64,000 nt of DNA, taken from positions 9,091 through 73,090 of the forward strand of contig DYLS01000004.1 of assembly GCA_020721965.1 (NCBI GenBank), in the 5' to 3' direction. Of this stretch, positions 50,478 to 64,000 are shown piece after piece. This stretch comes from Blastopirellula marina. GTDB lineage: Bacteria > Planctomycetota > Planctomycetia > Pirellulales > Thermoguttaceae. A program made the position numbers and the translations under genes. Each line of letters begins with the position of its first letter. Position 1 is the stretch's first letter. Under the pieces are notes generated by a model. That model was given only the letters and a program-made list of their open reading frames with translations. It was not told the origin of the DNA and did not search any database.

Positions 50478-52538
50478 GTGCACGAACAGGCTCGTGATCG
50501 CGGCTGGCCCCCATTCCGCGGGGCAGCCTTCTTCATTTTGCCCGGCTTATTTGTTGGGTTGGGGACGGCCCTCGCCGGAACGCCTCATCCCCTGGCCGGT
50601 CAAACGGTGCTCCTCGATTTCTACGCCTCTTGGTGCGGCCCCTGCCGGAACATGATGCCCACCGTGGCCGAACTCGAGCGGTTGGGTTACCCCGTGCAGC
50701 GGATCGACGTAGATCGCCAGCGCGACCTGGCCCAGCAGCTCGGGGTACACTCCCTGCCCACTTTCGTGATGCTGGTGGACGGACAAGAGGCCGGGCGACT
50801 GATAGGGGGGCAACCACTCTCGTCGCTCATCGAGCTGTGCCGCCGCGCACCTCGTGCGAACACCGCGGCAGCCGCCCCCCAGTACACCAGCCCGCCCAAT
50901 GACCAGCACACCAGTTCGCCCAATGACCAGCACGCCGGATCGCCAAATGACCAGCGTACCGGACCGCCCAATGACTCGTCCAGCGATCGTCCCCCTGATC
51001 GCCGCACCGTCCCCGTGGAGGAAAATGCCACCCTGCCAGAGCTGATGCCGGGACTCCGCTACGCCTCCGCCGCGGAAGAAGATCTCACTGCGGCGACGGT
51101 ACGGATTCGGGTCGCCGATGCCTCGGGTCGCTCCACGGGGTCGGGCACCATCATCGACGCCCGGGGTGGCGAGGCCTTGATCCTGACTTGCGGCCACCTG
51201 TTCCGCGAATCGCAGGGCAAGGCACCCATCCGCGTGGATTTGTTCGGGACGCAGCCGGTTTCCGATCTGCCAGCTCAGTTGATCGACTACGACGACCGAT
51301 TGGACCTGGGACTCATCACGATCCGACCTCCCGCGCCGGTGGTGGCGGCCCGCGTCGCGCCCCCAGGCTTTCCTCTCTCCCAGGGTGATGCGATCTATTC
51401 GGTCGGCTGCAACGAGGGGAACCCTCCGACCTTACGGCAAGGAAAGATAACCACGCTCAACCGCTACCTCGGCCCAGCCAATATCGAGGCCTCCGGATCG
51501 CCTGTCACAGGCCGCAGCGGAGGGGGGCTGTTTTCCGCGGAAGGCTTTTTGATTGGCGTTTGTAATGCCGCCGATCCCGATCTGAACGAAGGCATCTACG
51601 CCGCGTTGAAGGAGATTCACCACCGGCTGGATCACCTGAATTTGAGCTTTGTGTATCGCGGGCGTCCCTTGGAGGCGGTAGCCGCGTCGCCACCCGCTCT
51701 GGCTCGAACGCCAGGCGTGGCAGCGGTCGAGGCGATCCAGGGGGACGTGGCAGCCGTGCTTGGAATACGCGCCGATGCCACCGCCAATGCCGGGAATCCG
51801 CCGGATTCTCCCCACGCCCAAGATATGGCGGCCACCACCGCCAGCGATTCCAACATGGCCCTCACCGAGGGGTTGAACCAAGAACGTGCCGCCGCGATTA
51901 CCACGCAAAACGGAATGCCGCTGCCGATTCCCTCGGACGAGCCTCCACTTCAGCCACTCCTTGGAATGAGGCGAAGCAATGCGGGCGATGCCACAGCCTC
52001 GTTGACACCGCCAACTCGCAGTCCCGCGCTCGGCTGGAACAACGTTGTCTTCACTCCGACGACACCCCACAGTCCCGTCACCCAAGGTGATCGCGTCGAG
52101 ACAGCGTCTTTCAATCCCGGTACCTCTTATAATCGCGATACGTCTGCTGCGAAAACTCCTCCCGCGACAGCGCAGCCGGGTGGAGTCGCTCTGACGGCCG
52201 AGGAACAAGCGACGCTGGACGAGATCGCCCGACGCCGCGCCCTGGGTTACGAAATCATCTGCATCGCGCGTCCCTCGAATTCCCAGGACAGCCCGAGTGA
52301 GGTAATCGTCCTGCGTGACGCCTCGCCAGCTTTTCTCGCGGCCCTCCAGCGTACGGAGGCAGCGCGGTCCCCAACGGGAGAGACCGGCTCGGCGCGACCA
52401 GCCCCGCCCGTCGCTATCGCAAACCAGACCGCATCCCCGGCAGCGTCGCGAGGTCGTGCCACCGCGGAACCCGATAAACTGCCCGCCGGCACCTCGCCCG
52501 TGCTCCCTGCGGTCGTTCTGCCCAGCCCAGCGAGGTAA
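50478..52538 (+). CDS. Exported thioredoxin-trypsin-like peptidase fusion protein
   Basis: GGAGGAG RBS + GTG; DFYASWCGPC; LILTCGHLF (His), DLGLI (Asp), TGRSGGGLF (Ser); 8-aa repeats TSPPNDQH (24-bp x4, about 50886-50980); long low-complexity C-half. Confidence 0.88.
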   Translation: MHEQARDRGWPPFRGAAFFILPGLFVGLGTALAGTPHPLAGQTVLLDFYASWCGPCRNMMPTVAELERLGYPVQRIDVDRQRDLAQQLGVHSLPTFVMLVDGQEAGRLIGGQPLSSLIELCRRAPRANTAAAAPQYTSPPNDQHTSSPNDQHAGSPNDQRTGPPNDSSSDRPPDRRTVPVEENATLPELMPGLRYASAAEEDLTAATVRIRVADASGRSTGSGTIIDARGGEALILTCGHLFRESQGKAPIRVDLFGTQPVSDLPAQLIDYDDRLDLGLITIRPPAPVVAARVAPPGFPLSQGDAIYSVGCNEGNPPTLRQGKITTLNRYLGPANIEASGSPVTGRSGGGLFSAEGFLIGVCNAADPDLNEGIYAALKEIHHRLDHLNLSFVYRGRPLEAVAASPPALARTPGVAAVEAIQGDVAAVLGIRADATANAGNPPDSPHAQDMAATTASDSNMALTEGLNQERAAAITTQNGMPLPIPSDEPPLQPLLGMRRSNAGDATASLTPPTRSPALGWNNVVFTPTTPHSPVTQGDRVETASFNPGTSYNRDTSAAKTPPATAQPGGVALTAEEQATLDEIARRRALGYEIICIARPSNSQDSPSEVIVLRDASPAFLAALQRTEAARSPTGETGSARPAPPVAIANQTASPAASRGRATAEPDKLPAGTSPVLPAVVLPSPAR

Positions 52539-52556
52539 CCCAATGTTCTGCTCGCC

Positions 52557-52706
52557 GTAATCGTACACGGAAACATGCGGAAAACGCCCCGTGTTCACGA
52601 GGCGTGTGGCAAAAACGCCCTGCCCATTGCTGCCCACGGCTGAAAGAAACCACAAGATATTGTGGCCGATACGGCGAGAAACCCCGAATGTTCCGTGAAC
52701 GGTTAC
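52557..52706. mobile_element. MITE family A, 150-bp copy
   Basis: GTAATCGTACACGG (52557) ... ACCCCGAATGTTCCGTGAACGGTTAC (52706); 26/27 identity of 52681-52707 with 42780-42806; flanks TGCTCGCC / TTCGCACC (5/8). Confidence 0.85.
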
Positions 52707-52726
52707 TTCGCACCGAACGAGCGTAT

Positions 52727-53545
52727 TCAACCTGAGGCTGGAGGGGCTGATCCTCGCGGGGAGCAGGCCACGACCCAGCCGTTGGCCCGAATCGACCCGA
52801 AGAACCAGGGGGCGGCGAGTGGCCCGTTGCGATCCACGCTGAGCGGCACCGCCTGCTTGATGGCCAGGTCCGCGGACGATAGATCGCGTCGCAACTCACG
52901 CCAGGTGAAGGCGTGAACGAAGACGTTCGCCACGCCGTGATACTCGAAGAATCGATCGCCGAAATCCCCACGGCGCAGGAAGGTCGTCCGCAGCCAGTGC
53001 GGCCACAACCACTCCCTGCCGGCGGCAGTCAACAGGTTGTGCCACACATTGTGGACGTGCAGGATAAACGTTCCGCCCGGCTTCAAGATGCGGCGGACAT
53101 GCCGCAGCACGGTTCGGCGATGTTCGCGGCCGTGAATCATCCCCAGCGTGCTAAAAAGGCATAAAACATAGTCGGCAGACCGGTCTGCCAGGCACCCCAG
53201 CTCCACCACGTTGGCCTGAACGGCATGAACGGCGACGTTCGCTGCCCGGGCCTTGGTCCGTACAATCCGCAGCATGTGGGGTGAAAGGTCCACGCCCACC
53301 GCAAAAAATCCTCGCTTGGCCAGGGGCAACAAGGCTCTGCCCGTCCCGCAGCCCAGGTCCACCACGACGCCGGGTTTGCGAAAGTGCCGGGCGATGACTT
53401 GTTCATCAAACAGAAAGAGGTGACTGCCCGCGATCGTGTCGTCGTATTCTTCGGCGATGTACGGGGCGTGGGCATACTCCCAAACACCCCTTGCCACCCC
53501 CGGTGGAAGGAGCCATTCCGGACGAGATTCCCGACTTCCGGTCAC
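52727..53545 (-). CDS. Class I SAM-dependent methyltransferase
   Basis: VVDLGCGTGR, VGVDLSPHML, CLFSTLGMI, RRILKPGG. GTG at 53545 with a GGAG RBS. Confidence 0.92.
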   Translation of the reverse strand: MTGSRESRPEWLLPPGVARGVWEYAHAPYIAEEYDDTIAGSHLFLFDEQVIARHFRKPGVVVDLGCGTGRALLPLAKRGFFAVGVDLSPHMLRIVRTKARAANVAVHAVQANVVELGCLADRSADYVLCLFSTLGMIHGREHRRTVLRHVRRILKPGGTFILHVHNVWHNLLTAAGREWLWPHWLRTTFLRRGDFGDRFFEYHGVANVFVHAFTWRELRRDLSSADLAIKQAVPLSVDRNGPLAAPWFFGSIRANGWVVACSPRGSAPPASG

Positions 53546-54048
53546 CGCCGCGCTCCGTTGATTCGATGAGATTTCATGATCAGGAAAAGCCGATCCCAAG
53601 ATATGATCCACTCGACTGGATCATCTGCCCAGGTCCCGCAAAAGCCAGGAGCAAGCCACTCTTCCATCGCAAGTTTGGCCCGCAAATCCGCGATTCTCGC
53701 CACCGCCCGATAAATCCTCCAACCGGCCCATCCATTCCGAGTCTAGGCAAACAACCGTTTTATTCGAGTCCGCGTCTGCGGGCAACCGCACGGCCATCCC
53801 GACTAGCGCCCTCACCGATACACAACTTCCGTGACGATTGCCCGACACCCAGGCTTTGTCGCAAGGCCAAACTAGCGAAGCCGTCTCATTTTCCTGTAAG
53901 ATTCTCATTTTCCGGCAAGCTATATCCGGTATGATATGTATATATATGTATCGATGCGATTGGAGATCGCCTGTCGCCAAGGGTTGGTCTGTCGATCTTG
54001 GTAATTCGCATACGGCGTGGGATCTCCGCGTATTGCGAGGGGTGAAGG

Positions 54049-56112
54049 TTGTCCGACATCGCTTATCTCGTCATCCGGGAAGGTTCCAAATGGACCGATG
54101 TATTTCGTCTGGTGCCAGGCCAGGTGATTACGATCGGTCGTGCCCCCACGAACCAAATCATCATCAAGGACGACCGCTGTAGCCGCAGCCATGCCGAAAT
54201 ATTTCTCTCCGACGGTCGCTGGGTGATACGCGATCTGGAAAGTCGCAACGGGACGGCGGTTGGCACACAGTTGATCAAGAAGGATTGGCCACTGGAATCC
54301 GGCGACGTGATCCGGATCGGCCGCTCGCAATTGGTCTTCGTGCGGAATCTGAGTGACGCCTTTCCGGAAGGAGGCACGATCCCTGGCCGTGAAGCGGTGG
54401 AGCTGCCCGCCGCCTCGGAGGCCCCCTCCGAAAGCGACATCGACGTATTGGGAGGCTACGAACCCACCACCATCACGCATCGGCGGACCCGGACATCGCT
54501 GCTGGAGGCGGGCGAGGAAAGCGAGCCCCCCCAGGCCGAGTCGGGGCGGGCCGCGGCCCGACTTTGCCGACTGGCCTTCGAGATGGGGAAGGCCCCCGAC
54601 GCCCCCTCCATCGCCGCCTTGGCCCTCGACGTGCTCTTCGAAATGACCCACGCTGACGGAGCGGGCGTGCTCCTGCGGCCGCGCGGTTCCGGGCAAATTG
54701 CGGGCGGGAGCGATCTCAAGCTGGTGGCCTCGAAGACCCGCTCGCAATGGGCCTATCACCGCGTGTCCAACTTTTTGGCGGCGACCGTGCTCCGCGAAGG
54801 AGAGGCCGTCCTGGCTCGCAACGTGCTCAACGACAGTGCCATCGGCAGCCGCGACAGCCAGGGCGAGATCCACGCCGCAAGCGTCATCTGCGCACCCATT
54901 CGCCGCGGCACCGAGACGCTGGGACTGATCCACCTCTACACGACGGACGCTAACGCCGCATTTACTCCCGACAATTTGGAATTCACTTTGGCGGTAGCCG
55001 AAACGGCGGCCGTGGCCCTCAACAATCTCAACCGGCAAGAGGAATTGGCGGAGAACCTGACCCAGGTCCGGAACGAGAATGTTCAGCTTCGCGAGCGGCT
55101 CGGTGCGCAGAGCGAGCTGGTGGGCCGCAGTCCGGCGATCCGCGCCATTAGCGATGAAATCGCCCGCGCCGCCGCCACCCGTGCCACGGTCTTGATTCGT
55201 GGGGAAAGCGGCGTTGGCAAGGAGTTGGTCGCGCGTGCCGTCCACTTTTCCAGCCCCCGCAAGGCCGGCCCCTTCGTCTGCATCAATTGCGCGGCCCTGT
55301 CCGAGGAGTTATTGGCCAGCGAATTGTTCGGCCACGAAAAGGGATCCTTCACCGGGGCCTTCGAGCGCAAAATCGGCAAGTTCGAGCTGGCTCACCAGGG
55401 CACCCTGATGCTGGACGAGATCGGCGAAATGAGCCCCGGCATCCAGGCCAAGTTCCTCCGCGTGCTGGAGGGGCACCCCTTCGAACGGCTGGGCGGCAGC
55501 AAGCCCATCCAGGTTGACGTCCGCGTCATCGCCGCCACCAATCGCGATCTGGAAAAAGAGGTCATTCAAGGACGATTCCGCCGCGATCTCTTCTTCCGCC
55601 TGCGCGTCCTCGAGATCGTCGTGCCACCTTTGCGAAAGCGGCTCGACGATGTGCCCGAGTTGGCCTACTACTTCCTCAACAAGTTCCGCGAGGAAACCGG
55701 CCGGAAAATCAAGGGCTTCACCCCCGCCGCCATGGATCGCCTTACCGCCTACCGCTGGCCGGGGAACGTTCGCGAACTCAAGAACGTGATAGAACGGGCC
55801 GTCGTACTCTGCCGCGGCAACCTGATCGATGCCGACGACCTGCTCCTCTCCAATCTGGCCACAACCGGCGACACCGCCGACGCTGTGCTCCAGGAACGCG
55901 GCTATCGCCCTTGTTCCTTGGCGGACATGGAGCGCGCCCACATCCTGAATACACTGCGACACACAGGCTGGAACAAGAGCCGTGCCGCGTATATCCTGGG
56001 CATCGAGCGATCCACGCTGGATCGCAAGATCCGACGTTACAATTTGGAACCGCAGGAGCGGTCCAGCACGCCGCCTGCTCACCCCGCCGCGCCACCTCCT
56101 GATTCCCATTGA
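54049..56112 (+). CDS. Sigma54-dependent enhancer-binding protein, FHA-GAF-AAA+-HTH
   Basis: FHA ([21 protein letters not shown]), GAF (SVICAPI..LGLIHL), [36 protein letters not shown], Fis-type HTH ([20 protein letters not shown]). Confidence 0.95.
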
Positions 56113-56319
56113 AGCGGCCCGCGTTCGCACGCCACCGCCGACTTTTGAAGCCAGGCCGGCGACTTTTGAAGCCAGAACGGTCTTACCCTGCGGAGGAACG
56201 TCCGAGACCTCAGCCTATCGGGGACGCTCAGCGGAAGCGACCCACCTATCTTCCAAACCCTTTTTTGACACGAACCTTTCTGGACGTATTTTAGCCCAAA
56301 CTTCCCGGACGAATTTTTA

Positions 56320-56497
56320 CGTAAATCGTTACTGCGTAAAGACTTCCTGTTGATTTACACTGCTTGTCGTAGTCATGTAATGGTTTTTCATAAGTTCTTG
56401 TCCCGTAATGAGTTGCGTGATTCACCTTGTACTCAGAAAACGGTCGGAGAATCAGCGTGCTCAATTGACGTAAATCATGGTCTTGCAATCACTTGCA
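56320..56497. repeat. Three 29-bp imperfect palindromes (11-7-11)
   Basis: CGTAAATCGTT-actgcgt-AAAGACTTCCT (56320-56348); CATAAGTTCTT-gtcccgt-AATGAGTTGCG (56389-56417); CGTAAATCATG-gtcttgc-AATCACTTGCA (56469-56497). Confidence 0.55.
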
Positions 56498-56752
56498 ATT
56501 AGAGCGTGCCTACCTCGCGCGCGGGGGGGTTAACGCCCCGCTAGTTCGCAGGAGGAAGTTTGGTTTAAGTGCACGGAAGCTTTGACAGGCCGATCCGAAC
56601 AATTACCATTGGCTAGTTGAAGGCGGGCTGAGTCGTGAGTTGAAGGCTGGCTGAGTTGCGGTGCAGCGTCGTCTCGCGATGTTCCCACAACCAGCGGTCG
56701 AGGATCGCACAGCCGCCGAGGACCGCATGACGCCTTGGGCTGATTTTACGCG

Positions 56753-57874
56753 ATGCAGGGGGTGGATGACATGGGGCACTTTTCGGCGCGATCGTTTCTT
56801 ACCATTGTTTGTACCAGGCAACGGGTTCGTGCCAGGCACGGGAGAAAATCGGGCTTGCGATGGGCCGTCGCAGGAGTATGCGTGGCATTGGTGGTGGTCG
56901 GCGGCGTCCCCGCTGAACTTGAAGCACGAGAGGATTCCGGTCCGCAATCGGCGGCGACTCCACGCCCTGCCACAGGCACGACTCCATCGATCTCGCCGGA
57001 CGATCCAATCCAACTCCGCGATGCCGTGGCATACCAAATCTCGATGGGACGATCTCTAGAAGTAACCTGCGACCAGATTCAACGGCACTCCCCGGGGATT
57101 GCCGGCTCAAATTCCCCCCCGCTTGCCAGCCTCGTCACCGCGACATACGAAGATCTCACCGCAACACCTCCTCCACCTCCTCAGCGTCCCCGGGCGATGG
57201 CCCTGATTGGCGACCGCTACCATCATCCTGGGTACATCCGCCCACCACTCGAAGCTGTCTGCCAAAAAGTCGGCGTGGCGTCTGTCTTCATTTACGACGT
57301 GCGCCTGCTCAACAAAACGATCCTCCGCGACTACGACCTCCTGATTGTCTTACGTGACGGCATGCTCTGGCCCTCCCCAACCGAGGATGACGAGTTCGGA
57401 AAGCAACGAGTCTTTTGGCTGACCCCGGATCAAGAGGTGGCAATCGCCTCTTACGTATCCCATGGTGGCGCGTACTTGGCGCTCCACAACGCCACGGCCC
57501 TCAAGGGTCTGAACGATACGGATTCCTTGTACTCCCAAGTGCTGGGCGCCACCTACGCCGGTCATGGGAAGGTGGACGAGTGCTACCGGGTCCGCGTGAC
57601 CGAGCCAGGCCACCCCGTCGCTCAACATGTCAACGACTACACGATCACCGACGAACGACACTGGCCGACCCTTCATGTTCAAGACGCCCAGGTCTTTCTA
57701 GAGGCCGTTTGCACCGACCGGCGGTCCATTCACGGATTTACCCGGTTGTACGGCCAAGGCCGCGTGTGCTACCTCGCAAACGGCCATCATCGGGGGGCTT
57801 TGGAAGCCCAACCCGTGCAACAATTGTTGGAGAACGCCATCCGGTGGTGCCTCAAGGGGCCGGGCGCTGAGTAG
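56753..57874 (+). CDS. Exported ThuA-like (class I glutamine amidotransferase-like fold) protein
   Basis: ALIGDRYHHP, GGAYLALHNA, VLGATYAGH, TDERH, YGQGRVCYLANGH. Start uncertain. Confidence 0.75.
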   Translation: MQGVDDMGHFSARSFLTIVCTRQRVRARHGRKSGLRWAVAGVCVALVVVGGVPAELEAREDSGPQSAATPRPATGTTPSISPDDPIQLRDAVAYQISMGRSLEVTCDQIQRHSPGIAGSNSPPLASLVTATYEDLTATPPPPPQRPRAMALIGDRYHHPGYIRPPLEAVCQKVGVASVFIYDVRLLNKTILRDYDLLIVLRDGMLWPSPTEDDEFGKQRVFWLTPDQEVAIASYVSHGGAYLALHNATALKGLNDTDSLYSQVLGATYAGHGKVDECYRVRVTEPGHPVAQHVNDYTITDERHWPTLHVQDAQVFLEAVCTDRRSIHGFTRLYGQGRVCYLANGHHRGALEAQPVQQLLENAIRWCLKGPGAE

Positions 57875-58190
57875 CAGTCCCCGGGGCAAAACCTGATAAC
57901 GGATGCCGGGATGCGACAAAGCGACAAAGATGCCGCAGATCACGAGTCGGCGGCCCCTTTCAGCACGGCTCCTCCCAGGGAACTAAGCCGCAATTGCAAT
58001 AGGCGGGTAAAACATCCAAGAAACCCGCTCCTTCTGCCGATTTCTACCTCTTGACAAATCCAGGCCACATAGCAATGATTTTGAAGATCATCAACATCAC
58101 CGGCTGTCGCAGGCCGACCCGCGAGTCGGAGCACGGGCAACGAAGGGATATGGCGCCTGAGGGCCGGTGAGGTGAAGGACGCTAACATCT

Positions 58191-59555
58191 ATGGCTACCG
58201 TGGATGCCGACGCGACGCCGTCGATCCCGGGTGATGAGGAGCCTCCTGGTTCCCAAATCACTTTCGAGACGATTTCCCCACGTTCATCTCATGCCGCAAC
58301 TCGCGGCTCACTCCTTCGCCTTCCCGTGATAGGCGAGCCATCCACCGAACCGGCCGTCGAGCCGGTGGTCTTCCGGCGTCCCAAGACGGACCCCCGAGTT
58401 CGCCAATTCCGCCGGACTTTCTACCGGGACGTTCCCGACAAGCTGTGGAACGACTGGCACTGGCAAATCAGCCACCGCGTGCGAACCCTGTCGCAAATCG
58501 AGCGATTGCTGGTCCTCTCGCCGGATGAACGCGAGGCTCTGGTCAGGGCGGGCGAGAAGCTGCCGGTAGGCATCACGCCCTATTACATGGCGTTGATTTC
58601 GCCTCACGATCCGGACCAGGCCCTTCGCCGAACGGTCCTCCCGAGCATGGCGGAATTCATGGTTTCCCCGGGCGAGGCGCAAGACCCGCTGGGAGAAGAC
58701 GAAGATAGCCCGGTGCCGGGCCTGGTGCATCGTTATCCCGACCGTGTGCTGCTTTTGGTGCACGACTTTTGCTCTACCTACTGCCGATACTGCACGCGGA
58801 GCCGCGTCGTCGGGCACGGTGAGATTGCCTCGTCGCATGACCGTCTGCAAATGGGGCTGAACTACATCCGCCGCAACCCCCAGATCCGCGACGTGCTTCT
58901 GTCGGGTGGCGACCCGCTGACCTTGAGCGACGAAAAGCTCATTTGGATTCTGTCCGAATTGCGGCGGATTCCTCACGTGGAATTCCTGAGGATCGGGACC
59001 AAGGTGCCGGTCGTGCTCCCACAGCGGATCACGCCCGCCCTGTGCCGTGCGCTGCGCCGCTTCCACCCCTTGTGGATGAGCATCCACTTCACGCATCCCG
59101 ACGAATGCACCCCGGAGGCGTACCAGGCCTGTGGCCGCCTCGCGGATGCCGGCATCCCGCTAGGCTCGCAAACCGTTCTGCTCCGCGGGGTGAACGACGA
59201 TGTCGAGATCATGAAGCGGTTGGTGCATGAACTGCTGAAGATGCGGGTGCGTCCGTATTACCTCTACCAGTGCGATCCGACTCTCGGTTCGGCTCATTTC
59301 CGCACCTCGATCTCCAAGGGGCTGGAGATCATTTCCGGCTTGCGAGGGCACACGACCGGCTACGCCGTGCCGCATTTCGTGGTCGACGCGCCGGGCGGTG
59401 GCGGGAAAATCCCCCTGCTACCCGACTATGTCATCGGCCGCGAGGGGGATGACCTGCTTTTGCGAAACTACGAGGGTAAGGTCTTCCGCTATCCCGACCC
59501 ACCGGAGACTTCGGTTCCCGTGGAGAAGGTAGCGCCAACAAGCGGGGAAGCATAA
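58191..59555 (+). CDS. kamA: KamA-family radical SAM/PLP enzyme (lysine 2,3-aminomutase-like)
   Basis: WNDWHWQ, CSTYCRYCTR (CxxxCxxC), LLSGGDPL, RIGTKVPVVLPQRIT, QTVLLRGVND, PYYLYQCD, FVVDAPGGGGKIP (PLP Lys). Confidence 0.93.
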   Translation: MATVDADATPSIPGDEEPPGSQITFETISPRSSHAATRGSLLRLPVIGEPSTEPAVEPVVFRRPKTDPRVRQFRRTFYRDVPDKLWNDWHWQISHRVRTLSQIERLLVLSPDEREALVRAGEKLPVGITPYYMALISPHDPDQALRRTVLPSMAEFMVSPGEAQDPLGEDEDSPVPGLVHRYPDRVLLLVHDFCSTYCRYCTRSRVVGHGEIASSHDRLQMGLNYIRRNPQIRDVLLSGGDPLTLSDEKLIWILSELRRIPHVEFLRIGTKVPVVLPQRITPALCRALRRFHPLWMSIHFTHPDECTPEAYQACGRLADAGIPLGSQTVLLRGVNDDVEIMKRLVHELLKMRVRPYYLYQCDPTLGSAHFRTSISKGLEIISGLRGHTTGYAVPHFVVDAPGGGGKIPLLPDYVIGREGDDLLLRNYEGKVFRYPDPPETSVPVEKVAPTSGEA

Positions 59556-59575
59556 TACAGCAGGTTTACGCCTCC

Positions 59576-60265
59576 ATGGAACGAGAAGAACCACTTTGCT
59601 TCCGCTGCGATCGGACGCAACGGACGTGTTGCCAAATTTGTCAGATCTACGTCACCCCTGGTGACGTGGAACGGATCACGGCTTATGCCGGCCAGCAGAA
59701 CTTCTTCGAATATCGGCGCCCCACGGATCCGGAATACTTGGATCAAGACGACGACCCGCTCTGGGCAGCGTGCGTGTTTCGATCGGACGGAACGCGGCGG
59801 GTGCTGCGGCGAACGGATGCCCAAGGCTGCATTTTTCTAGGCCCCCAAGGCTGCCGCCTGCCGCTGGAGGTTCGGCCGCTGGTGTGCCGCCTCTATCCCT
59901 TCGAGTATACCGAGCGAGGCCTGACGGGCGTCGTCGGCAGTATGTGCCCTCATCATTTGCTAGCCCCCGGCGAGACCCTGCTGGACTCCTTGGGGATGGA
60001 CGCGGAGACAGCAGAACGCTGGCGCACGCAACTGTATTCGGAAATCCGCCGCGAGCCGACAGCCCCCGCGCCGGTCGCGGGCGAAGGCTCGGCCACGATT
60101 GTCGTCGCCGCGGACCAGCCCCACGTCACGCCGTCCTCCCAGCCGTCTTTATCCCCGAACTTTGTGGCCCCATCCCCGGTCGGCGGATCCCACGCTTCCC
60201 ACGCCGCACCGGGTGGAGATTGTCGCGTCCCTGGCCAATCCTCCTCGCCATGCACATCGGTTTGA
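59576..60265 (+). CDS. YkgJ-family cysteine-cluster (CxxC...CC) protein
   Basis: CFRCDRTQRTCCQ, GCIFLGPQGCRL, RPLVCRLYPF, followed by a low-complexity tail that overlaps the next start. Confidence 0.85.
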   Translation: MEREEPLCFRCDRTQRTCCQICQIYVTPGDVERITAYAGQQNFFEYRRPTDPEYLDQDDDPLWAACVFRSDGTRRVLRRTDAQGCIFLGPQGCRLPLEVRPLVCRLYPFEYTERGLTGVVGSMCPHHLLAPGETLLDSLGMDAETAERWRTQLYSEIRREPTAPAPVAGEGSATIVVAADQPHVTPSSQPSLSPNFVAPSPVGGSHASHAAPGGDCRVPGQSSSPCTSV

Positions 60266-61245
60266 CCTACGATCTCCGCAACGAATACTTGGCCGAAGGT
60301 TGGAGCGAGGCCGAGACGGCTGAATTCGACCGTGACGACACGATCGAGGCGATCGACATCGCGCTGCGACAAATTGGGCACAAAACGGATCGCGTGGGCC
60401 GATTGAGCAAGCTGGTGACGCGACTGGCCCGCGGCGACCGGTGGGATCTGGTCTTCAACATCGCTGAGGGAATGTTTGGGAAGGCCCGCGAGGCCCAAGT
60501 TCCCGCCCTCCTGGATGCCTACCGCATCCCGTACACTTTCGCGGACCCGGCCGTGCTAATGCTCAGTCTCGATAAGGCCTTGTGCAAGATGGCAATCCAG
60601 CAGGTCGGTCTTCCCACGCCGCCGCACTGGGTCATCAAAACCCAGGCCGACATCGACCGCGTGTCACCGCAGTTTCCCCTTTTCTGCAAGCCTCTCGCGG
60701 AGGGTACTGGAAAAGGTGTCACCGAGGACTCCTTGGTTGGCACCCGAAAGGCACTCGCCGACCAGTGCCGCCGCCTGCTCGCGGAGTTCCACCAACCCGT
60801 CTTGGTCGAGACCTATCTCCCCGGGCGGGAATTCACCGTGGGCCTGTTAGGCACCGGGATGGAGGCAGAGGTCCTCGGCACGCTCGAAATCATCCTCCTC
60901 TCCAGTGCCGAGCGTCATGCTTATTCCTATCTCAACAAGGAGTTCTGCGAACAGTATGTCGAATACCGCTTCGTTTCCGCCGCGGATCCCGAGGTCGCGC
61001 AGGCCGAGCAAATCGCCCTGGCAGCCTGGCGCTGGCTGGGGGCCAGGGACGGCGGCCGTGTGGACCTGCGGTCCGACGAAAACGGTCAGCCCCAATTCCT
61101 GGAGATCAATCCACTCGCCGGCTTGCATCCGCAGCACTCCGATCTGCCCATGATCGCCACCGCCGTGGGAATGCCCTATCACGAATTGATCGGCCGGATC
61201 GTCGATTCCGCAACTAAGCGAATCGGCAATCCAGCCATTTTTTGA
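60250..61245 (+). CDS. D-Ala-D-Ala ligase-like ATP-grasp enzyme (non-canonical)
   Basis: True start MHIGLTYDLR (60250); FNIAEG, KPLAEGTGKG, VETYLPGREFTV, GGRVDLR, LEINPLAGL. Confidence 0.9.
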   Translation: MHIGLTYDLRNEYLAEGWSEAETAEFDRDDTIEAIDIALRQIGHKTDRVGRLSKLVTRLARGDRWDLVFNIAEGMFGKAREAQVPALLDAYRIPYTFADPAVLMLSLDKALCKMAIQQVGLPTPPHWVIKTQADIDRVSPQFPLFCKPLAEGTGKGVTEDSLVGTRKALADQCRRLLAEFHQPVLVETYLPGREFTVGLLGTGMEAEVLGTLEIILLSSAERHAYSYLNKEFCEQYVEYRFVSAADPEVAQAEQIALAAWRWLGARDGGRVDLRSDENGQPQFLEINPLAGLHPQHSDLPMIATAVGMPYHELIGRIVDSATKRIGNPAIF

Positions 61246-61278
61246 AGCTCGTCGCCCACGTTCTGGAGGGATGTTGCC

Positions 61279-62820
61279 GTGCGGGTGCTAATCGTTCACC
61301 AAGACCTTGCGTCACGGGCGGCCGCGGATGATCTCGACGTACTGCAACAAGTGGAATTGGTTCGGTCCGGACTTTTGCGACTAGGGCACACCACCGAGAC
61401 ATGGACGCTGGACCTCGATTTGCGGCAGTTTCAAGAGGATGTCCGCCGCATCTCCCCAGACATCGTTTTCTATCTCGTGGAATCGCTTGGGGCAACGGAC
61501 CGGCTGCAATATCTGGCCGCGGGGGTGTTGGACACTTTGGCAATCCCGTACACCGGCTGCGCCACTCGAGCCTTATTCGAGACCAACGATAAGCTGATCA
61601 CGAAAGCCCGTCTGAAGGCCGCCGGGCTGCCCACCCCTGCCTGGTTGACCGCGACCGCTGGCGAACCGTCGGAAACTGGCATCCGGACGAAGGGGCAGTA
61701 TCTCATCAAGAGCGCCTGGGAACACGCCTCCGCCGGTCTGGTGGAGACGCTCCACCGCGTCGATACGGCGGAACAGCGAGACGCATTGATGGCCGCGATG
61801 CGACACCTCACAACCACGACGCACCGCCCTTGGTTCGCCGAACAGTTCATCGACGGTCGCGAATTCAACCTCTCTTTGCTGGGCGGAAGCGAGGGACCCG
61901 AAGTGCTTCCCCCCGCCGAGATCGACTTTTCCGCATTTCCCCCCGAAAAACCCCGAATCGTGGGCTACAAGGCCAAATGGGACGAAGGCTCGTTCGAGTA
62001 TCATGCCACGCCACGACGATTCGATTTTCCCCCCGCAGATCGCCCTTTGTTGGCGGAGCTTGAGCGGCTCGCCGTCGCCTGCTGGCACTTGTTCGAGTTG
62101 CGGGGATATGCCCGGGTCGATTTCCGTGTGGGAGACTCCGGACAGCCGTTCATTCTCGAAGTGAACGCCAATCCCTGCCTTTCCCCAGACGCCGGGTTCA
62201 TGGCGGCGGTCGCAGCGGGCGGCTACAGCCCCGAGGATGCCTTGTCCCGCATCCTGGCCGACTCCCTCGAATCGAGTGGGAGTGCTGGTAAGCCCCGCGG
62301 CAGGCAACCCGCCCCCAGCCAACCCCTCCGCGAGGACGCAGGCCCGATCGAATTTCGCCGGACGGTCATACCGGAGGACGCGCAGGCGGTTCGGCGACTC
62401 GCACAAGCCACGGGGTTTTTTCATGCTGACGAGATCGACATCGCGGTGGAGCTGGTTCAAGAGCGTTTGGCCAAAGGGGAGGCGTCGGGTTACGAGTTCA
62501 TCTTCGCCGAGGATTCCCGAGGACTGGCCGGATACACCTGCTTCGGACCGATCCCGTGTACCGGGCACAGTTGGGATCTGTATTGGATCGCCGTGGCACC
62601 GGATCGGCAGGGGCAGGGATTGGGAAAGGAACTCATGGTGCGGACCGAGGCCGCCGTCCGCGCCGCGGGCGGCACACGGATTTACATCGACACATCGAGC
62701 CGGGAGCAATATGCCCCCACCCGGGCCTTCTACCAGCGCTGCGGTTATCGCACGGCCACCATCCTGGAGGACTTTTACGCCCCCGCCGACGGCAAGGTGA
62801 TCTTGGAGAAACGTTTGTAG
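61279..62820 (+). CDS. Ddl-like ATP-grasp enzyme fused to a C-terminal GNAT acetyltransferase
   Basis: GGAGG + GTG; IPYTG, IKSAWEHAS, EQFIDGREFN, GYARVDFR, LEVNANPCL; GNAT LYWIAVAPDRQGQGLGKELM and TRAFYQRCGY. Confidence 0.9.
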   Translation: MRVLIVHQDLASRAAADDLDVLQQVELVRSGLLRLGHTTETWTLDLDLRQFQEDVRRISPDIVFYLVESLGATDRLQYLAAGVLDTLAIPYTGCATRALFETNDKLITKARLKAAGLPTPAWLTATAGEPSETGIRTKGQYLIKSAWEHASAGLVETLHRVDTAEQRDALMAAMRHLTTTTHRPWFAEQFIDGREFNLSLLGGSEGPEVLPPAEIDFSAFPPEKPRIVGYKAKWDEGSFEYHATPRRFDFPPADRPLLAELERLAVACWHLFELRGYARVDFRVGDSGQPFILEVNANPCLSPDAGFMAAVAAGGYSPEDALSRILADSLESSGSAGKPRGRQPAPSQPLREDAGPIEFRRTVIPEDAQAVRRLAQATGFFHADEIDIAVELVQERLAKGEASGYEFIFAEDSRGLAGYTCFGPIPCTGHSWDLYWIAVAPDRQGQGLGKELMVRTEAAVRAAGGTRIYIDTSSREQYAPTRAFYQRCGYRTATILEDFYAPADGKVILEKRL

Positions 62821-62888
62821 TTCGAAACCGCTGGCGGTCACCCCGTTCCCGCTTGCACAACCTGAAGATCGTTTGCGGCTCTTCGTAC

Positions 62889-64000
62889 CTACATTTGCCG
62901 GACAGTTTCGCCCGCATGAAGCGAACACCGAGGACGCATTCGGACCATTTGAGGCGTTCTCAGCCTGGCGTCCGAGCAGTCCTCATCGGTTTGTAGAAAA
63001 CAAACCCCTTGCTCCAACCCCAAATTGGCAACCGCTTGAGCTGAGAGGGACTGAAGGCTCGGCGTCATGTTTCGCAAGTATTCGATCTCGGCCTGGTCGG
63101 GTATCTTGAAGATGAACCGCGTCAACAGGTAGCGAAAGAGAGGCCGTGGAATGCGCGTGGGGTATTGCGAAGCAAAGACGAAAGACATGCCGTCGTGACG
63201 TATTTGCGTCAGCGCATTTTCCAAATCCTCCGCCAATTCCCTATTGTGAACGTATTCATGGGCCTCATCGAACACGATCAGCTTATTGACACCGTTCTTG
63301 GCGCGGCGAATCAGGTCGGTAGTGACCAGGCACAGCTTCAACGCCTCGGCCGGTCGCAACATTTGCATTCGCAGGTCCACGACGGTAAGGCTTCCCTCCT
63401 GCAAGAGATCGCTCCAACGATAGGGGCGTTGGTCCGAAACCCACCGCCGCGCGAAGACCAATCGATTGATGGCCTTTTGCAACTGCGAGGCAGATAGGCG
63501 GCCATCTTTCCGGACTTCCTTTTCCAGTTCATCGAGCGTCAGCCGCTGCTGATAGTGCAGTTTTTGAATGATATCCCGAACGACATTCAGGTATTCGGTC
63601 TCTCGGTACGTCGCCTTCATCAGGATTTCCCAGTGACCCGCGCTGAGTTCCTCGGGATGGAATTGAAGAGGCAAAGCATGGAGGTCCGCGTATTCGCCAC
63701 GGCGTCGCGGTATCTCATCGGGATAAGCCAAGACGTTCACCGATGGAATTCCGGCAGCGACGCCGCCGTACTCGCTTTCCAACGATGAAACCTCATTCGG
63801 CCGGTTGTTGGCCAGACGAAATCCGCCGTACTCAAATCGCGCCGCTTCATTACTGCGATAATTGAAGCCCACGACGGCCATGGGGCGCGTTTGGCGGATC
63901 AGAGGCGGCTGTTGCAAGATCGCATTTTCGATCAACACGCCCAAGGCGTACGATTTCCCCGATCCCATGTAACCCACCAGCACGATACCTTGCGGCTTCG
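62889..64000 (-). CDS. C-terminal part of a HerA/FtsK-like P-loop ATPase resembling the MADS Mad8 ATPase; 5' end outside the window
   Basis: Frame open to 64000 (KPQGIVLVGYMGSGKSY, Walker A); TVVDLR; LIVFDEAHEY (Walker B); IRHDG.SFVFASQ.P; C-terminal RPRCSLHAG. Confidence 0.7.
   Translation of the reverse strand, partial: KPQGIVLVGYMGSGKSYALGVLIENAILQQPPLIRQTRPMAVVGFNYRSNEAARFEYGGFRLANNRPNEVSSLESEYGGVAAGIPSVNVLAYPDEIPRRRGEYADLHALPLQFHPEELSAGHWEILMKATYRETEYLNVVRDIIQKLHYQQRLTLDELEKEVRKDGRLSASQLQKAINRLVFARRWVSDQRPYRWSDLLQEGSLTVVDLRMQMLRPAEALKLCLVTTDLIRRAKNGVNKLIVFDEAHEYVHNRELAEDLENALTQIRHDGMSFVFASQYPTRIPRPLFRYLLTRFIFKIPDQAEIEYLRNMTPSLQSLSAQAVANLGLEQGVCFLQTDEDCSDARLRTPQMVRMRPRCSLHAGETVRQM

Follow-up and report, generated by a model that had tools for sequence, protein, structure and literature searches.

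We describe a four-gene operon of a Thermoguttaceae planctomycete in a 64,000-nucleotide stretch of contig DYLS01000004.1 (Blastopirellula marina assembly GCA_020721965.1; the whole stretch is hereafter the window). It encodes a lysine 2,3-aminomutase-like protein (KamA), a YkgJ-family protein, and two ATP-grasp ligases with the fold of D-alanine–D-alanine ligase (Ddl), AG1 and AG2, the second of which is fused to a GNAT acyltransferase. The KamA-AG1-AG2-GNAT core is an ancient, widely shared biosynthetic cassette, which we classify as an uncharacterized, widespread amino-acid-ligase pathway starting from beta-lysine. We put at about 0.55 the probability that it makes a small cytoplasmic N-acetylated beta-lysine-containing peptide or a short beta-lysine oligomer. 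What is unfamiliar is not the enzyme families but the way in which KamA, two Ddl-fold ligases and a GNAT are combined.

Public records name the cassette proteins 'D-alanine--D-alanine ligase' or 'GNAT family N-acetyltransferase'. Full-text searching found no paper characterizing the cassette, and an earlier computational prediction of it is possible. A preliminary description of the window knew of no characterized product for such gene neighborhoods, and none was found in the searchable literature.

A four-gene operon led by a lysine-type aminomutase

The coding features of the operon, in window coordinates, are as follows.

58191–59555, + strand: KamA, 454 aa; predicted radical-SAM, pyridoxal 5'-phosphate (PLP)-dependent lysine 2,3-aminomutase
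59576–60265, + strand: YkgJ-family CxxCxxCC protein, 229 aa; core of about aa 1–160 plus a low-complexity tail
60250–61245, + strand: AG1, 331 aa; predicted non-canonical Ddl-fold ATP-grasp amide ligase
61279–62820, + strand: AG2-GNAT fusion, 513 aa
61279–62283, + strand: AG2, the other Ddl-fold ATP-grasp; occupies roughly the first 335 aa of the fusion
62332–62820, + strand: GNAT acyl-CoA N-acyltransferase domain; aa about 352–513, fused to AG2

The junctions, read on the sequence, are a 20-bp gap between KamA and YkgJ, a 16-bp overlap between YkgJ and AG1, and a 33-bp gap between AG1 and AG2, exactly the spacings of four co-directional genes given in the preliminary description. AG1 starts with ATG (MHIGLTYDL), in agreement with its family consensus, and AG2-GNAT starts with GTG preceded by a GGAGGGA Shine-Dalgarno sequence. 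Terminator-like matches inside the operon are no more frequent than chance, and the GC content of the cassette is host-like, the same as that of the flanking DNA. Thermopirellula anaerolimosa and two metagenomic relatives carry the identical four-gene set with identical upstream synteny.

Profile searches assigned Radical_SAM and LAM_C domains to KamA, and residues 74–438 align to the lysine 2,3-aminomutase of Clostridium subterminale (PDB 2a5h; E 1e-144). The CxxxCxxC motif of KamA (C194/C198/C201) falls on C125/C129/C132 of 2a5h, its YQCD motif supplies D362, the equivalent of D293, and its VVDAPGGGGK motif supplies D399 and K406, the equivalents of D330 and K337. D293 and D330 of 2a5h bind the epsilon-ammonium group of lysine, and K337 is the PLP lysine. 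All six KamA residues (C194, C198, C201, D362, D399 and K406) are invariant among 64 cassette KamAs, and the alignment thus upholds the earlier reading of this protein as lysine-type, with the cysteine motif, the PLP lysine and both lysine-binding acidic residues kept.

Among NCBIfam models the best match to KamA is AblA (TIGR03820), at 506.2 bits narrowly below the equivalog cut-off of 525.4. Scores on the models for glutamate 2,3-aminomutase (430 vs 650), arginine 2,3-aminomutase (378 vs 600) and EpmB (249 vs 369) lie under their cut-offs, and the KamA subfamily model TIGR00238 is passed (355 vs 199). The predicted formation of beta-lysine by KamA is the best-supported step of the pathway.

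Two paralogous ligases with altered substrate pockets

In Pfam, both ATP-grasps match only the C-terminal domain of Ddl (PF07478, Dala_Dala_lig_C; 80 bits for AG1 and 52 for AG2). Against the Ddl models NF002378/TIGR01205 they score 140/112 bits (AG1) and 92/75 bits (AG2), below the cut-offs of 243/246. AlphaFold2 models (predicted local distance difference test score of 89.7 for AG1 and 88 for AG2) matched Ddl structures in Foldseek with a TM-score of about 0.8 at 22–27% identity (25–27% for AG1), and a profile search of the PDB found nothing nearer to the ligases than Ddl. AG1 and AG2 share about 25% identity, which marks them as anciently diverged paralogues and not recent duplicates.

Pocket residues were mapped by hhalign profile-profile alignment to E. 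coli DdlB together with family alignments. The equivalents of DdlB K97, K144, E180, E187, R255, D257, E270 and N272 are conserved, or almost so, across both families, and K215 is also retained: AG1 keeps K109, K147, E187, E194, K230, R270, D272, E285 and N287, while AG2 keeps K105, K144, E188, E195, K233, R279, D281, E294 and N296. The R-V-D and E-x-N elements attributed to both ligases by the preliminary description are thereby located at R270/D272/E285/N287 in AG1 and R279/D281/E294/N296 in AG2. Because the ATP-binding, Mg-binding and catalytic residues are intact, both proteins should be catalytically competent, acyl-phosphate-forming ligases.

Neither ligase preserves the D-Ala pocket (E15/S150/Y216, S281 and L282). 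Relative to DdlB, AG1 has exchanged S150 for T153, Y216 for E231 and L282 for D298, and has S297 at the S281 position; E231 and D298 are invariant in its family. AG2 has exchanged S150 for A150, Y216 for W234, G276 for C300, H280 for D304, S281 for A305 and L282 for G306, with D304 an invariant new acidic residue, and it carries E/D at position 18, the E15 position of the Ddl triad. The acidic residues E231, D298 and D304 would suit a cationic, amine-bearing substrate such as beta-lysine.

The low model scores and changed pockets agree with the earlier view of the ligases as non-canonical. Its further statement that characteristic Ddl elements are missing needs refining, since altered remnants stand in their place: EGSS has a counterpart in AEGTGKG of AG1 and WEHASAG of AG2, YDYxxKY in YSYLNKE and VGYKAKW, and for the Ddl SAEREV segment the similar motifs are TAEFDR (AG1) and D(E/D)xDV (AG2).

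With Ddl as their nearest family by sequence and fold, the pair might make an unusual dipeptide or depsipeptide, perhaps with beta-lysine, that becomes part of the peptidoglycan stem, of a capsule or of a polymer resembling teichuronopeptide. A structure that closely matches the GNAT domain (PDB 2r7h, discussed below) is even named 'putative D-alanine N-acetyltransferase' in the PDB sequence table. We nevertheless regard an envelope building block as decidedly unlikely, given that both ligases fall far under the Ddl cut-off (140 and 92 vs 243 bits), that the D-Ala pocket residues are changed, and that in no lineage is the cassette linked to mur, fts, glycosyltransferase, flippase or export genes.

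Gene order and natural fusions tie the ligases to KamA and GNAT

The comparison covered about 175 related loci; genomes supplied 80 of them, metagenomes another 80, and exact-protein look-ups 15. Where at least 1.6 kb of sequence was available upstream of AG1, 102 of 106 loci (59/60 + 37/39 + 6/7) have KamA directly upstream and in the same orientation, an arrangement far beyond chance that bears out the expectation of similar neighborhoods in other genomes. The hosts fall into at least six named lineages: Bacteroidota (Bacteroidales, Rikenellaceae, Salinivirgaceae), Desulfobacterota (Desulfonema, Desulfobacterales), Gammaproteobacteria (Woeseiaceae and others), Alphaproteobacteria (Rhodospirillaceae), CSSED10-310 and Planctomycetota (Thermoguttaceae, Pirellulaceae, Planctomycetaceae); Kiritimatiellae is named for one homologue only. 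An exhaustive AG2 search of 1.84 billion representatives (50%-identity clusters, E ≤ 1e-30) recovered relatives in 1264 clusters at 50% identity.

The three downstream activities are also found joined in pairs within single polypeptides. Most top homologues have AG2 and GNAT fused, as do the copies examined from planctomycetes and Desulfobacterales. In the one Bacteroidales example checked (L043) GNAT is a separate open reading frame (ORF) in a different frame, and clustering of flanking ORFs placed GNAT-sized ORFs in a cluster of their own in 71 genome loci. At least nine top matches of 637–731 aa align to the query in two stretches, and one of these long proteins, P0406, is an AG1-AG2 fusion whose N-terminal half is 57% identical to AG1 and whose C-terminal half is 47% identical to AG2. 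By length and the two aligned stretches, P0424, P0436, P0439, P0448, P0463, P0475, P0478 and P0503 appear to be AG1-AG2 fusions as well.

Conserved gene order and natural fusions thus bind the AG pair functionally to KamA and GNAT. Since both AG1-AG2 and AG2-GNAT fusions exist, the AG1, AG2 and GNAT activities probably act together, as a complex. The heterodimer or complex floated in the preliminary description gains Rosetta-stone support from the AG1-AG2 fusions.

The GNAT domain itself is complete (PF00583, 48 bits; PF13508 also matches), with QGQGLG as its Q-x-x-G-x-G acyl-CoA motif, and is separated from AG2 by a linker (aa 335–351) that is disordered in the AlphaFold2 model. It matches PDB 2r7h (DDE_3044 of Desulfovibrio G20) at E 1e-46, 46% identity and a root-mean-square deviation of 0.8 Å; this is an orthologue-level match to a stand-alone protein, whereas the domain in the window is part of a fusion. 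We know of no function ever assigned to 2r7h, a structural-genomics GNAT. Together, the domain matches and 2r7h confirm the fusion of the second ATP-grasp to a complete GNAT.

An AblAB-like GNAT, as the preliminary description implied, was not found: the domain belongs to another subfamily, scoring 11.4 bits on AblB (TIGR03827) against a cut-off of 205. Its best family match is RimI (TIGR01575), at 39.4 bits below the cut-off of 86.4.

These scores bear on another account of the operon, in which it simply makes N-epsilon-acetyl-beta-lysine, or breaks lysine down through N-acetyl-beta-lysine like the B. subtilis kamA-yodP operon, with the ATP-grasps as unrelated neighbors. KamA plus a GNAT supplies both AblAB activities, and the AblA model gives the top KamA score. 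This account is nonetheless highly improbable in view of the 11 bits against 205 on AblB, of ligases that in almost all loci lie between KamA and GNAT and that are joined to GNAT or to one another, and of lineages that keep KamA, AG1 and AG2 without a GNAT.

Clustering of the flanking ORFs of about 170 loci revealed no transporter, peptidase, precursor peptide or target-protein gene that recurs across lineages. The same clustering was the source of candidates for further conserved partners, and these were rejected: the flanking clusters represent lineage-specific synteny, plus the YkgJ and GNAT-HDAC genes described below.

Three Desulfobacterales loci carry an EpmA gene in the same orientation, about 4 kb upstream of the cassette (L085 572–1492, L086 990–1886, L088 783–1703), and the two that were scored, L085 and L086, reach 308–318 bits on the EpmA model TIGR00462 against a cut-off of 287. 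The order there is EpmA, then HSP20 and Lon, then the cassette. The cassette KamA might also feed beta-lysylation of EF-P in Desulfobacterales, or EpmA might simply be part of the lineage synteny. A link to EF-P as a general feature of the cassette was set aside, EpmA being near it in this one Desulfobacterales lineage only.

The same genes raise the prospect of protein modification, in which the ligases would couple beta-lysine or some short peptide to a protein such as a translation factor or a protein of the ribosome and the GNAT would acetylate the tag, in the manner of RimK, RimI and EpmA. ATP-grasp enzymes such as RimK do modify proteins, RimI is the best GNAT family (39 bits), and the three upstream EpmA genes are true ones. 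Yet the RimI score is under the cut-off of 86, EpmA is near in one lineage only and with HSP20 and Lon between it and the cassette, about 170 loci show no recurring efp or other candidate target gene in its vicinity, and the nearest relatives of the ligases by sequence and fold are the small-molecule Ddl enzymes. We therefore consider protein modification unlikely.

Optional accessory genes

The YkgJ protein carries a cysteine cluster at its N-terminus (CFRCDRTQRTCCQIC) and matches the CxxCxxCC family PF03692 with 26.8 bits, above that family's gathering score (23). The subfamily to which it belongs is tight and comprises 449 matches, mostly from Planctomycetes. The slot between KamA and AG1 is filled by such a gene in about 14 of the roughly 175 loci, nearly all of them planctomycete-like; a YkgJ gene holds this position in L081, L089, L098, L107, L146, L149, L155, L160, L170, L171, L173 and L174, and the L089 copy is 48% identical to that of the window. 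It is absent from all 80 genome-derived loci (Bacteroidales, proteobacterial, Desulfobacterota and CSSED10-310). The YkgJ gene is thus an optional, mostly planctomycete accessory, and its earlier casting as a pathway member does not extend to the core. No sign of methylation, also suggested earlier, was seen; the YkgJ protein matched no NCBIfam model, and no comparison with FliB was made.

The window copy ends in a Pro/Ser/Ala-rich tail of about 70 aa (60056–60265, aa about 161–229) that is poorly conserved even relative to Thermopirellula. The other cassette YkgJ copies, of 163–175 aa, have no such tail, and the AG1 start codon lies inside that of the window.

A second accessory gene encodes a weak GNAT-like N-terminus joined to an amidohydrolase of the histone-deacetylase family (HDAC; PF00850, 249 bits) and sits inside at least 12 cassettes, between AG2 and GNAT or between KamA and AG1. 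Examples of 579–590 aa are found at L074 9797–11557, L066 9880–11652, L124 5055–6752, L155 8937–10658 and L174 8622–10361, in Woeseiaceae, other Gammaproteobacteria and some planctomycetes, and the HDAC domain is acetylpolyamine-amidohydrolase-like. One 8.7 Mb planctomycete contig holds the full six-gene form (KamA, YkgJ, AG1, AG2, GNAT-HDAC, GNAT), in which four of five junctions overlap or are no more than 3 bp apart. The presence of a deacetylase hints that a primary amine of the product is masked reversibly by an acetyl group.

Masking of this kind would also fit an iterative use of AG1 and AG2 to build an oligomer or polymer of beta-lysine comparable to the side chain of streptothricin or to cyanophycin, with the GNAT and the HDAC-type deacetylase masking and unmasking its charge; the polymer could be a storage compound, a polyamine substitute or an antimicrobial prodrug. 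The invariant acidic pocket residues gained by the ligases (E231 and D298 in AG1, D304 in AG2), the presence of acetylase and deacetylase together in at least 12 cassettes, and weak profile matches to cyanophycin synthetase are compatible with such a polycation. The cyanophycin matches are marginal, however, there is no linked exporter or immunity gene and no conserved primer or hydrolase gene, and the cassette shows housekeeping synteny and host-like GC content. A polymer is, on this balance, an improbable product.

A conserved 5' leader RNA in the Thermogutta/Thermopirellula-type clade

Two features precede kamA.

58051–58079, + strand: sigma-70-like promoter, from a consensus scan
58097–58170, + strand: structured 5' leader RNA (candidate cis-regulatory), stems P1–P3

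The promoter consists of TTGACA at 58051, a 17-nt spacer and AATGAT, and the CCTCTTGACAA block is conserved in seven of seven Thermoguttaceae-type loci. The leader occupies 74 nt between the promoter and the kamA start codon. Seven distinct loci, with proteins of just 60–86% identity, share its 25-nt core, CCCGCGAGTCGGAGCACGGGCAACG (58118–58142), without a single change; the copies outside the window lie at L081 6879–6952, L170 2885–2958, L171 2885–2958, L146 4120–4196, L172 3658–3731 and L173 3849–3922.

An enclosing helix is formed by TCACCGGC / GCCGGTGA in the window, TGACTGCGG / CCGCAGTCA in L146, TCACTGC / GCAGTGA in L172 and TCACTACGG / CCGTAGTGA in L173, and a second helix by CAGGC / GCCTG in the window and AAGGC / GCCTT in most other loci. 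P1 and P2 covary, with 96% of cells paired as against at most 50% with slid partners and seven pairs changed on both sides, in an alignment that was fitted to the structure and includes one weak extra match. The single-sequence fold z-score is unremarkable (−1.3), so that support for the structure rests on covariation.

Rfam 15 gave no match at E ≤ 1 in window positions 52000–64000 and no cis-regulatory match at gathering score in 16 related loci. A covariance model of the leader found no copy in 63 other loci, and matched only upstream of kamA within the Thermogutta/Thermopirellula-type clade. The leader may be a clade-specific, riboswitch-like cis-regulatory RNA, and it probably controls expression of the cassette in this clade.

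We considered sigma-54 control by the FHA-GAF-sigma54 activator encoded upstream and rejected it, as there is no TGGCAC-N5-TTGC at 57480–58190; across the window, matches to this pattern occur at chance level. The activator belongs to the block that is syntenic with Thermopirellula (50478–52538, 52727–53611 on the − strand, 54049–56112 and 56753–57874), whose genes encode a fusion of thioredoxin and trypsin-like protease whose long linker is of low complexity, a class I SAM methyltransferase, the activator and a ThuA-like protein. The synteny stops exactly at the 3' end of the cassette, which points to a rearrangement or insertion there. Beyond it, convergent with the cassette, lies a fragment of a HerA/DUF87/VirB4-like ATPase (62889–63983, − strand; weak matches only).

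A model for the pathway

In the pathway that we propose, KamA would first convert L-lysine to beta-lysine, as its fully conserved active-site residues imply. AG1 and AG2 would then each make one amide bond by way of a carboxylate activated as acyl phosphate, probably working as a complex, because they are fused in some genomes. Finally, the GNAT would cap a free amine with acetyl-CoA as donor. The predicted product is an N-acetylated beta-lysine dipeptide or tripeptide, or a short beta-lysine oligomer, which would most plausibly serve as a stress-protective compound or compatible solute, or as a polyamine-like metabolite. The YkgJ protein, and the GNAT-HDAC fusion in other lineages, would be optional accessories. 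The lack of exporter, peptidase, precursor or target genes near the cassette fits an intracellular small molecule, and the HDAC-type amidohydrolase of at least 12 cassettes fits an N-acetylated primary amine in the product.

Several observations weigh against this proposal. Four loci (L031, L084, L090 and L109) have AG1 and AG2 without an adjacent KamA, and the Thermogutta-type loci L146, L172 and L173 have no GNAT, fused or nearby, so neither beta-lysine nor acetylation can be strictly obligatory in cis. All chemical steps after KamA are ones that we infer, and the second building blocks could be further beta-lysine or common amino acids. The N-terminal substrate loop of AG1 is unalignable to Ddl, which makes our reading of the AG1 pocket tentative. 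The Rfam scans of the window and 16 loci found no osmotic-stress riboswitch or regulator, and the osmolyte role is suggested by analogy. The product structure and its assignment as an osmolyte, metabolite or envelope component, the options named in the preliminary description, are accordingly proposals.

Two further observations touch these points. AG1 may have retained its E15 equivalent, given the resemblance of its invariant TAEFD to Ddl SAERE. L156 and L160 also lack a GNAT, holding KamA, sometimes YkgJ, AG1 and AG2, and AG2 of the GNAT-less cassettes is 332–388 aa long.

A bolder form of the proposal holds that a heteromeric AG1/AG2/GNAT complex makes a new class of N-acetylated beta-lysine peptides, widespread in anaerobic and sediment bacteria of many phyla, and that in Thermoguttaceae the pathway is controlled by a new riboswitch class sensing lysine, beta-lysine or the end product. 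We offer it tentatively, as a conjunction that is doubtful as a whole.

Identifying the product would add a new beta-amino-acid metabolite to bacterial physiology. Solving the cassette would correct a large block of misleading Ddl annotations and add to the ATP-grasp amide ligases a class with a new specificity, for beta- or diamino acids; the leader, for its part, might prove to be a new cis-regulatory RNA with a ligand that reports on the pathway.

Comparison with known systems

Ddl and Van ligases share with AG1 and AG2 the three-domain ATP-grasp fold (TM about 0.8) and the ATP, Mg and catalytic residues, and the acyl-phosphate mechanism is probably common to all of them. AG1 and AG2 differ in their identity of 22–27%, in scores far below the Ddl cut-offs, and in the replacement of S150, Y216, L282 and other residues; they are also two paralogues beside KamA, in contrast to the mur/fts cluster of Ddl/Van.

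EpmB and EpmA provide a precedent in which a KamA-family aminomutase supplies beta-lysine for ATP-dependent amide ligation, in that case to EF-P. Here, by contrast, KamA has a LAM_C domain and scores 249 vs 369 on the EpmB model, the ATP-grasps are not LysRS paralogues, and there is no linkage to efp.

N-epsilon-acetyl-beta-lysine is, like N-acetylglutaminylglutamine amide (NAGGN), a compatible solute; it is made by the AblA/AblB pathway of methanogens, green sulfur bacteria and Bacillus. Like AblAB, the cassette has an AblA/KamA-type first enzyme with identical active-site residues, a GNAT in the same operon, and compact chromosomal genes without an exporter. It is unlike AblAB in the two ATP-grasps between KamA and GNAT and in its scores (GNAT 11 vs 205 bits, KamA 506 vs 525.4), and its product would have to carry extra amide bonds.

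The closest mechanistic analogy is the Ngg/AsnO pathway to NAGGN, where a GNAT and an ATP-grasp in one polypeptide, Ngg, turn free amino acids into an N-acetylated dipeptide. The domain order differs, Ngg having a GNAT followed by a RimK/cyanophycin-type ATP-grasp and the window protein a Ddl-type ATP-grasp followed by a GNAT, and the latter is not a member of the Ngg family (TIGR03103; 19.7 bits vs a cut-off of 569). The cassette also has no AsnO, and its precursor would be beta-lysine rather than glutamine. Its proteins fall outside both the AblAB and the Ngg families; the AblAB and Ngg products are the closest working analogies for what the cassette may make.

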